45,439 nucleotides of DNA from a virus. Lineage: Duplodnaviria; Heunggongvirae; Uroviricota; Caudoviricetes. The position numbers and the translations under genes were made by a program. The notes below the pieces were generated by a model. The model made no database searches. It was not told the DNA's origin and saw nothing but the letters and a program-made list of their open reading frames with translations. Positions within the stretch are counted from its first letter, which is position 1, and every line of letters begins with the position of its first letter. This document shows positions 35,608-37,249 of this stretch, in pieces. The DNA lies in IMG/VR virus record IMGVR_UViG_2541047931_000012; one strand, written 5' to 3'.

Positions 35608-35718
35608 TGAAGGACGTGTCAACTCTATTTTGTAAGCTATCCAGACTCACAGTTGCAGATCGACGAGTAACTTACATACAGCACAAAAAAACAATATGCG
35701 CGTGCTTTTAGACTAGAC

Positions 35719-35733
35719 TTACCATAATGGTAA
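35719..35733. promoter_or_regulatory. Perfect palindrome TTACCAT-A-ATGGTAA overlapping the first ATG of the toxin gene; candidate antitoxin operator
   Basis: Read directly at 35719-35733. Confidence 0.4.
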
Positions 35734-36137
35734 CAAGTATGATTCTTAGCAGATATGTGGGAACTCCTCCCCGTGATGGCGAGGACAGAAAGATTCAAGG
35801 TGGTCCGCTTTATTTAGATATCATTGATTTGATTGATGAATGTGACACACTGCCTTGGACTAGACGGTGTATCAGGGATGTTCAATCGCTTTCTTTAGAT
35901 GCAGATGACATCAAATCTATGGTGATAAAAGCAGTCACTAAAGGGAGATTTCTAGGTTCAGAATGGTGTCAAGGCAGTAAACCAGGTGTATGGGCAGCTT
36001 GTGATGCTTATAGCTTTGAGCACTCATTTTGGTGCCAAGCTATGCATAAAGAACTTAATAACGAGTTCTACATTAAATTTTTTGTAAACATTACTGGCAA
36101 TGTAGTGCTTACAGTATCTCTTCATCTCTCTAATTGA
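35727..36137 (+). CDS. MqsR-like toxin of a toxin-antitoxin-chaperone operon
   Basis: C-terminal region (...DAYSFEHSFW...EFYIKFFVNITGNVVLTVSLH) resembles MqsR (...YLKITVIHDVLIVSF) from memory; toxin-first order as in mqsRA. The start could be 35727 or 35739. Confidence 0.5.
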   Translation: MVTSMILSRYVGTPPRDGEDRKIQGGPLYLDIIDLIDECDTLPWTRRCIRDVQSLSLDADDIKSMVIKAVTKGRFLGSEWCQGSKPGVWAACDAYSFEHSFWCQAMHKELNNEFYIKFFVNITGNVVLTVSLHLSN

Positions 36138-36161
36138 GTGATGATAAATGAGGATTTTTAT

Positions 36162-36749
36162 ATGAGAAACAACAACATATGTCCAGTTTGTGGTGTAGGT
36201 CATCTCACCGTGGAGATGGAGTATGATGATGTTACTTATAAAGGGGAAACAAAAAATCTCCCAATAAGGTTTTCTGTGTGTGATCAATGTGGTTCGGAAA
36301 CTGCCACACCAGTCGATTTACGAGAAAACAAACGAATTTTCAATGAATACAAAAAGTCTATCGATGGACTTTTAACAGGAAAAGAATTAAAAAAAATTAG
36401 AACTGAAGTATGGATGATAACCCAGCAAAAGGCATCCTCTATATTTGGTGGGGGGCCTAAGGCATTTTCCAAGTATGAATCTGATGATGTCATTCAATCA
36501 GAAGCAATGGATAAACTGATGCGTTTAGCAGCAGAAGTTCCTGATGCATTCAAAAGGTTACGGGAATTATCTGGCGAAATCAAAGTTGAAAGAACAGTCT
36601 CATCATCTAAATCTTTACCTATATGGAAATCTGAAGCAAAAGCACAATTTGAAAACGATGATCAGGGATTTGACAGCAAATCACCAGCCCAAACAAAAAT
36701 GAATCAAACATCAATAAAGATAAAAACTGTTGCTAAGCGGGTAGCATGA
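36162..36749 (+). CDS. MqsA-like antitoxin (zinc ribbon plus HTH) with a ~70-aa C-terminal extension
   Basis: CPVCGVGHL...CDQCGSE zinc ribbon and SIFGGGPKAFSKYE matching the MqsA EIFGGGVNAFSRYE motif; RBS gagga before ATG 36162. Confidence 0.7.
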   Translation: MRNNNICPVCGVGHLTVEMEYDDVTYKGETKNLPIRFSVCDQCGSETATPVDLRENKRIFNEYKKSIDGLLTGKELKKIRTEVWMITQQKASSIFGGGPKAFSKYESDDVIQSEAMDKLMRLAAEVPDAFKRLRELSGEIKVERTVSSSKSLPIWKSEAKAQFENDDQGFDSKSPAQTKMNQTSIKIKTVAKRVA

Positions 36750-37249
36750 TGAATGAACTTCTTAGATCAGCAATAGACGCATTATCAATAATGCATATCA
36801 ATATCAGAGAATCTAACTTTGCTTTTTCTGAAGGGTATAATAGCTTTAACTTCAACAGCATAAATAAGCAAACACAATCATTTCGTAAGATAAAAAAAAT
36901 CGAAGCTATTGAATTAGTAAGTGACGATGACTCATTAAAAAATGAGCTATATTACTCTTTTCACTACTCAGTTGGGCTTAGATTTATTGCAAAATCCGAA
37001 GAAACATCTAAAGACGAAAATGATGTTGATACAATTTTTTCTATAGAAGCAATTTTTGAGGCGATATATCGCTCAAAGAGAGAATTATCTAAAGAAGAGT
37101 TAGAAGAATTTGCTAAGCAAAATGTAGGTTTTAATGTATGGCCTTTTTGGCGAGAGTATGTTCAAAACAGCACATCCAGAATGGGAATTACTACAATAGC
37201 TATACCATTCTTTAAATTCAATAAATCAGACATACCTTCATTAGATTAA
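36746..37249 (+). CDS. SecB-like chaperone
   Basis: 167-aa ORF overlapping the antitoxin stop (ATGA); FSIEAI and VWPFWREYVQNSTSRMGITTIAIPFFKF parallel SecB FSIAGI and [28 protein letters not shown]. Confidence 0.6.
   Translation: MMNELLRSAIDALSIMHINIRESNFAFSEGYNSFNFNSINKQTQSFRKIKKIEAIELVSDDDSLKNELYYSFHYSVGLRFIAKSEETSKDENDVDTIFSIEAIFEAIYRSKRELSKEELEEFAKQNVGFNVWPFWREYVQNSTSRMGITTIAIPFFKFNKSDIPSLD

Follow-up and report, generated by a model that had tools for sequence, protein, structure and literature searches.

The 45,439-nucleotide virus record IMGVR_UViG_2541047931_000012 (Caudoviricetes), hereafter called the window, carries three tightly packed plus-strand genes directly behind its cI repressor gene, in the position that lambda uses for the exclusion genes rexA and rexB. 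This raises the question of what the three genes encode and whether they act against other phages. We found that the locus is very likely the MqsR/MqsA/MqsC (MqsRAC) toxin-antitoxin-chaperone (TAC) anti-phage system, the same DNA as the system of E. coli C496_10, carried as cargo between cI and OL/PL. The sequence printed as "MsqRAC gene fragment" in Table S8 of Vassallo et al. (PMC9519451) corresponded to window positions 35639-36017, with a single mismatch over the 379 nt compared, which fell on non-coding DNA at 35700. The five cloning primers of the same study, which mark the ends of the three genes, all matched the window exactly, at 35739, 36114-37, 36732-49, 36746 and 37227-49, respectively (PMC9519451). 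The original prediction, made from the letters of the window, had implied that the system was new. The system, its three-part logic, its anti-phage role and the use of the cI/rexAB slot by TAC systems are all already published, and the implied novelty was the only error of that reading. The genes and the neighbouring features are arranged as follows (window positions).

34577-34810, minus strand: cro-like gene
34915-35607, plus strand: cI-type repressor with helix-turn-helix (HTH) and S24 peptidase (Pfam Peptidase_S24, 1.5e-18; HTH_3, 1.5e-6), annotated as cI in Escherichia phage PhiR70_1
35639-35726, plus strand: non-coding DNA 5' of the toxin gene, part of the published MqsRAC construct
35719-35733: palindrome that spans the start codon of gene 1, with a -10-like CATAAT at its centre and a putative role as operator for the MqsA-like antitoxin
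35727-36137, plus strand: gene 1, mqsR-like toxin of 136 aa with RelE/MqsR fold
36162-36749, plus strand: gene 2, mqsA-like antitoxin of 195 aa with zinc ribbon CPVC...CDQC, HTH (FGGGPKAFSKYE) and C-terminal tail
36561-36746, plus strand: C-terminal extension of the antitoxin, residues 134-195, a putative chaperone-addiction extension (ChAD)
36746-37249, plus strand: gene 3, mqsC, SecB-like TAC chaperone of 167 aa
37264-37290, plus strand: intrinsic-terminator-like hairpin with 6 G-C pairs and then the T-run TTTTCTTTTG, closing the cI-mqsRAC unit
37371-37460, plus strand: OL-like operator repeats and the PL-like promoter TTGATA-17-TATTAT (promoter at 37432-37460), the far boundary of the slot

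As the open reading frame (ORF) list shows, the three genes were packed between cI and the terminator/OL/PL cluster (37264-37460) as originally described. The cI stop codon and the start of gene 1 were separated by a 119-bp gap, genes 1 and 2 by 24 nt, and genes 2 and 3 overlapped by 4 nt in the predicted ATGA. The ORF of gene 2 opens with GTG at 36138 (203 aa), and the ATG at 36162, which follows GAGGA, gives the 195-aa product. The GC content was 31-38% across 35800-37400 and 48-53% in the flanks, in agreement with the AT-rich composition already noted. The immunity region was lambdoid, with the plus strand of the window in the "leftward" sense. The sequence AATAGCAAT was common to the OL-like repeats and the cI/cro intergenic region (34817-34906), and kil, gam, bet and exo were situated past OL/PL.

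The C496_10 system gave robust protection against T2 and not against T4 (Vassallo et al. 2022, Nat Microbiol, PMC9519451). In the same work, the toxicity of MqsR was rescued only by MqsA and MqsC together, the protection against T2 was lost when extra MqsC was induced, and the construct, cloned in a vector that lacks a promoter, was said to be driven by its native one (PMC9519451). Inhibition of T2 from the "native promoter" was confirmed by Fernandez-Garcia et al. (2023, PMC10783111), who argued for persistence and for cooperation with McrBC. The three genes had been read as a TAC operon and as a candidate anti-phage module. Their order was borne out, and both the need for the chaperone and the defence against T2 had been demonstrated experimentally for the same DNA (PMC9519451).

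Gene 1 encodes an MqsR-fold toxin with an N-terminal addition of about 38 residues, too diverged for the Pfam model. It gave no Pfam match at E <= 1, so the PF15723 (MqsR) model was not passed. It had no NCBIfam match, PADLOC was without a model for it, and PHROGs returned only families of "unknown function". The profile of the gene 1 family, searched against PDB sequences, retrieved neither MqsR nor anything else relevant. The AlphaFold model, calculated from an alignment of 44 homologues, was confident (pLDDT 91) and had an MqsR/RelE-type fold, and PF15723 was matched by 14 of the 44 homologues, with a best E of 2e-5. A Foldseek search with the AlphaFold model gave no significant match. We assigned gene 1 as a diverged MqsR-fold toxin because of the confident model and the 14 homologues that touch PF15723. 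The predicted MqsR-like, RelE-fold toxin was thus supported, although gene 1 itself fails Pfam. The residues invariant among the 44 homologues were Y29, W80, C81, D93, Y95, K117, S131 and H133. Because of its MqsR/RelE fold, the toxin may act as a translation-dependent RNase.

The start codon of the toxin gene has been placed differently in different records. The ATG at 35739 was used in RefSeq WP_024222007.1 and in the published pBAD-mqsR constructs, and the ATG four codons earlier, at 35727, in GenBank PV340577. The start conserved in the family was the ATG at 35727 (MVTSMILSRY...), with M1 and V2 nearly invariant in the 44 homologues. The conserved Met-Val pair, a frame kept through in-frame insertions and deletions, and the lack of any conserved alternative start all mark the ATG at 35727 as the true start, and the likely toxin start codon is corrected to this position.

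Gene 2 is an MqsA-family antitoxin. It exceeded the curated cut-offs of TIGR03830 (113.2 bits against 61.8; 6.9e-33) and PF15731 (63.9 against 30; 2.1e-17), and PADLOC had no model for it. The predicted CPVC...CDQC and SIFGGGPKAFSKYE were present in the translation. Residues 6-133 aligned end to end with E. coli MqsA (3GN5/3O9X). Among nine diverse homologues, the four cysteines of the zinc ribbon and the HTH motif FGGGPxAFSKYE were invariant. The residues that we take to contact bases in MqsA, N97 and R101, both aligned with Lys in gene 2, which fits a related yet distinct DNA specificity. Since the alignment stopped at residue 133 of 195, gene 2 has a C-terminal extension, a candidate ChAD, beyond the canonical antitoxin fold. 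The tail had been estimated at about 70 aa; its existence was confirmed, and its measured length was 62 residues. The tail was variable except for one Trp (LPIW), and the close clade also kept the C-terminal Val-Ala (...KRVA). The 62-residue tail is a putative ChAD that would be bound by the MqsC oligomer via the conserved Trp and other aromatic residues. The Val-Ala end may be a ClpXP degron, by analogy with HigA1 of Mycobacterium tuberculosis.

Gene 3 is a SecB-like TAC chaperone and not the housekeeping SecB. The motifs FSIEAI and PFWREYV..., on which the SecB-like assignment had been based, were present, and gene 3 had the SecB fold (structure predicted from an 11-sequence alignment) and kinship to TAC chaperones. 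With the profile of its family, Rv1957, a TAC chaperone of M. tuberculosis, was matched (E 3.8e-6). Rv1957 was the best match of gene 3 in both structure and sequence and its closest relative with a solved structure, at 16% identity. The family was large (1797 cluster representatives at E <= 1e-3, with clustering at 50% identity), and PF02556 (SecB) was matched by 13 of 20 family members. Gene 3 failed the SecB equivalog model NF004392, with 15.3 bits against 143. With PADLOC just a weak match to PD-T4-9_C (CmdC) was obtained, and PHROGs gave "unknown function" families only. RefSeq names gene 1 hypothetical, gene 2 an MqsA-family antitoxin and gene 3 "protein-export chaperone SecB"; the last name is misleading and overstates the relation. 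Profile and structure searches, which the original prediction had proposed as its check, placed gene 2 (TIGR03830, PF15731) and the gene 3 family (Rv1957), and gene 1 was not recognised by Pfam or by Foldseek with its own model.

Several observations weigh against the identification as MqsRAC or against parts of it. Full-length identity with the C496_10 construct is one that we infer from the 379-nt stretch of Table S8 and the primer sites. The catalytic residues of MqsR could not be placed on gene 1 by an hhalign comparison, which was weak and partial (E 0.04) and left the C-terminal half unreached. Gene 3 remained under the Pfam SecB (PF02556) cut-off, with 16.5 bits against 26. A promoter scan and a -35 search of the 119-bp gap gave no convincing sigma-70 promoter. 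In addition, one group reads the outcome of infection as persistence and not as abortive infection (PMC10783111).

The window DNA was 100% identical to Escherichia phage PhiR70_1 (PV340577.1), in which all three genes are annotated as hypothetical. The host listed with the deposited PhiR70_1 genome is E. coli C. Of 5426 complete E. coli genomes, 18 contained the entire operon. In E. coli strain 442/2, the prophage was located at the DLP12 site (tRNA-Arg, intD, with emrE and ybcK inside). The carrier is a lambdoid prophage of the PhiR70_1 type at the DLP12 site.

The cargo occupies the lambdoid slot downstream of cI, which runs from the cI stop to OL/PL on the cI strand, and its content varied behind a shared cI. 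The same cI allele (at least 95% identical over the full length) was found in 719 genomes, of which only 18 carried this cargo. In two loci with the same cI allele and slot, L025 (4342-5943) and L026 (4352-5902), other cargo was found between cI and kil. In E. coli O157:H7 strain 7409 the slot held a protein of the SIR2 family, and in isolate AHB29 a pair of unrelated hypothetical proteins (340 and 168 aa). Partial matches were obtained in 254 more E. coli genomes and in phage PhiR68_2. The part matched in PhiR68_2 was about 40 nt around the terminator 3' of gene 3 (window 37250-37300), which suggests from the sequence that the right-hand boundary of the cargo slot is conserved.

The order of toxin, extended MqsA and small third gene was kept in every relative with enough sequence. 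Distant relatives of the toxin (35-50% identity) were followed by an extended MqsA of 175-273 aa and then by the small third gene. In other lambdoid elements (L022, L023, L027), distant members followed S24 cI-like repressors, and further members were located directly 3' of BREX PglZ/BrxL (L029, 1-2926) or after a ResIII helicase (L028, 347-2926). In L027 (2250-2900), the S24 cI-like repressor that precedes the distant TAC member was followed by an N-peptide gene.

A scan of the plus strand gave no terminator-like site between 35128 and 37264, so that none separates cI from the three genes. With no terminator in between, cI and the operon probably share a transcript from PRM in lysogens. The only sigma-70 candidate that the scan gave in the 119-bp gap, TAGACT-18-TATGAT, overlapped the ORF start and was rejected.

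The predicted palindrome over the toxin start was present at 35719-35733. It reads TTACCAT-A-ATGGTAA, is perfect over 15 bp and spans the ATG at 35727. A 7+7 palindrome alone is unremarkable in 45 kb; its conservation was remarkable. The palindrome was exact in 21 of the 24 loci first collected, including loci with toxins 38-44% identical and otherwise unrelated upstream DNA. Its core, TTACCA-N3-TGGTA(A), was kept across relatives with toxins only 35-70% identical. An alignment of 14 non-redundant loci showed no variation (2.0 bits) in columns -10, -8 to -3 and +2 to +6, whereas the flanking coding and non-coding columns had 0.1-1.4 bits. The variation was confined to the three central bases, which read TAA, TTA, TCG or CGA. 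The 17-mer ACTTACCATAATGGTAA had 49 exact occurrences in IMG/VR, 30 of which open an MqsR-like ORF. Within the available sequence, these 30 loci had a downstream MqsA-like ORF in 26 cases and a SecB-like ORF in 25, and the remaining 19 occurrences are presumably chance matches. Gene 2 contains a copy with 3 mismatches (36615-29), which we attributed to chance. No earlier report of the palindrome sequence was found in the literature searched, and the conserved palindrome looks unreported. The available passages of the MqsRAC papers (PMC9519451, PMC10783111) mention neither the lambdoid cI-slot context nor the palindrome.

The palindrome could be the operator of the MqsA-like antitoxin, a consequence of the protein and RNA encoded there, or an operator and promoter element in one. 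The site of E. coli MqsA is AACCT-N3-AGGTT, and the palindrome has a similar geometry, with 5-6-bp arms, a 3-bp spacer and an ACC/GGT core. Because of its conservation, its variable centre and this geometry, we regard the palindrome as probably the operator through which the MqsA-like antitoxin would repress its own operon. The right arm of the core, TGGTA(A), combines the TG of the start codon with the GTA codon for Val. The full arm, ATGGTAA, encodes the nearly invariant Met-Val of the family, and the two arms could also form a short mRNA hairpin that sequesters the AUG. The palindrome might then be an RNA hairpin or a by-product of the conserved N-terminus and not a protein operator. However, the non-coding left arm TTACCA was as invariant as the right arm, the Val codon was always GTA, and the restriction of variation to three central bases is what would be found for an operator of two half-sites like the AACCT-N3-AGGTT of E. 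coli MqsA. The hairpin itself would be weak, since its 5-bp stem contains just 2 G-C pairs. We consider the hairpin or by-product explanation rather unlikely and prefer the operator.

The centre of the palindrome may have a further function. A perfect TTGACA was found 16-18 nt 5' of the central CATAAT in 8 of 20 distinct upstream contexts, from at least five clades. The TTGACA-bearing loci were L015, L021/L055, L022/L054, L023/L032, L027/L035 and L037/L073. TTGACA and CATAAT together form a near-consensus sigma-70 promoter with its -10 at the palindrome centre, so that transcription would start about 7 nt further, 3' of the toxin ATG. This leaves two readings, an unusual start site or transcripts from this promoter that would express the antitoxin and the chaperone only. 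In the clade of the window itself, no good -35 for the central CATAAT was found (window 35700-35728). That the start-codon site is at once an MqsA-like operator and a -10 box, with transcripts that lack the toxin and a toxin supplied by read-through from upstream, for example on the cI transcript, is a doubtful proposal. If true, it would be a new way to set the toxin:antitoxin ratio, with the supply of toxin tied to lysogeny. The conserved palindrome can be used to find further members of this TAC family and to study their regulation.

The proposed mechanism follows that of other TAC systems. The MqsA-like antitoxin would keep the MqsR-fold toxin inactive, and its 62-residue tail would make it unstable unless the SecB-like MqsC binds the tail. 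Upon phage infection (in the published work, by T2), a viral product would presumably compete for MqsC. This trigger by chaperone titration is suggested by the HigC-gpV case. The recognition of lambda gpV by HigC, the chaperone of HigBAC, relies on aromatic motifs that imitate the ChAD (10.1101/2024.02.24.581848). The antitoxin would then aggregate or be degraded, possibly by ClpXP, because its Val-Ala end is the ClpXP signal of M. tuberculosis HigA1. The freed toxin would stop translation, and phage production would be halted by abortive infection or dormancy.

Two other roles have to be weighed against that of a dedicated abortive-infection or exclusion system. The operon could be mainly an addiction or dormancy module of the prophage or the host, serving lysogen stability or the formation of persisters: toxin-antitoxin modules are classical stabilisers of mobile elements, the antitoxin is unstable by design, and cells with MqsRAC are reported to come through T2 infection as persisters, in cooperation with McrBC (PMC10783111). 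T2 was nevertheless inhibited 10^3- to 10^5-fold, and the defence was lost with extra chaperone (PMC9519451, PMC10783111). Members of the family were also found in defence neighbourhoods, next to BREX and ResIII and in cI slots that elsewhere hold SIR2. Persistence and defence are compatible with each other. A chiefly addictive or dormancy role appears quite improbable. The native role could instead be superinfection exclusion of lambdoid or siphoviral phages, with T2 merely the phage that was tested. The slot is shared with RexAB and with HigBAC of E. coli NT1F31, which senses a lambda tail protein through its chaperone, and gene 3 belongs to a large, diverse family. The chaperone is described as the variable, specificity-determining part of TAC systems. 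The published plaque tests, on the other hand, showed protection against T2 and not T4 (PMC9519451), and the available passages of the papers report no lambdoid-phage test of MqsRAC. We consider a role chiefly against lambdoid phages unlikely, and anti-phage defence by MqsRAC remains the preferred reading.

Other features of the window lie outside the operon. In the interval from PL to kil, neither public annotation has an N-like antiterminator gene, and Kil is the name given to the first ORF (37654-37944). Inverted repeats (37538-48/37596-606) are present in the 195-nt leader after PL. A put-like or nut-like RNA after PL was considered and rejected, as 37461-37655 folded no better than shuffled sequences (z -0.56), and Rfam gave no match in the PL leader region. 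At the cro/cII positions (34007-34810, minus strand), the RefSeq names are YdaS-type HTH protein and "toxin YdaT domain-containing protein". Rfam matches at gathering level were obtained in 25195-25784 for the small RNA STnc100 (25251-25459, minus strand), the anti-stx2 small RNA AsxR (25195-25247, plus strand) and three tRNAs (25538-25784, minus strand), and elsewhere for the C4 antisense RNA (29268-29353, minus strand) and isrK (29378-29450, minus strand).

Compared with known systems, the locus shares with lambda RexAB its position after cI and before OL/PL. Both are presumably expressed together with cI in lysogens and serve to exclude other phages. RexAB has no sequence or fold relation to MqsRAC and a different mechanism, RexB being a membrane protein. 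E. coli K-12 MqsR/MqsA (ygiUT; 3HI2, 3GN5, 3O9X) has the same folds, zinc ribbon, HTH and operator geometry (5-bp arms, 3-bp spacer, ACC/GGT). It consists of two genes without a chaperone and without an antitoxin tail, whereas the window system has both. The window toxin is 38 residues longer at its N-terminus than K-12 MqsR and is unrecognised by PF15723, and the candidate operator TTACCA-N3-TGGTAA lies on the start codon, while the K-12 MqsA operator lies in the -35/-10 region.

The toxin of Vcho-TAC, an MqsRA-type system of Vibrio cholerae RC385, starts with MVNNAIN, encoded by the primer sequence ATGGTAAAT, and thus has the same N-terminus and right palindrome arm as the window family (PMC5105189). 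The ChAD of HigA1 in M. tuberculosis HigBA1-Rv1957 ends in Val-Ala like the window antitoxin, and Rv1957 is the best gene 3 match (Bordes et al. 2016, PMC5105189). Both systems differ from the window system in their hosts and by their distant sequences (16% identity between gene 3 and Rv1957), and the toxin-antitoxin pair of M. tuberculosis is of the HigBA family.

HigBAC of E. coli NT1F31 is a TAC system on a lambdoid prophage, downstream of cI in the rexAB position of lambda (Mets et al. 2024, bioRxiv 10.1101/2024.02.24.581848). It resembles the window system in its SecB-like chaperone, its cI-downstream slot, a toxin from an "MqsR-like" node and a ChAD with aromatic residues. Its HigA has 218 aa with a 96-residue ChAD, whereas the MqsA-type antitoxin of the window has 195 aa with a 62-residue tail, and the aromatic residues are placed differently. 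HigBAC targets lambda-vir and Bas25 via gpV, whereas the published target of MqsRAC is T2. The instability of HigA in HigBAC is ClpXP-independent, whereas the window antitoxin ends in Val-Ala as M. tuberculosis HigA1 does. Identity of the window system with NT1F31 HigBAC was rejected on the grounds of antitoxin type and length, both of which differ. The MqsRAC system of C496_10 has the same gene order and names (mqsR, mqsA, mqsC), and nothing substantive differs except the published MqsR start at 35739. The characterised C496_10 MqsRAC is now tied to a concrete phage, PhiR70_1.

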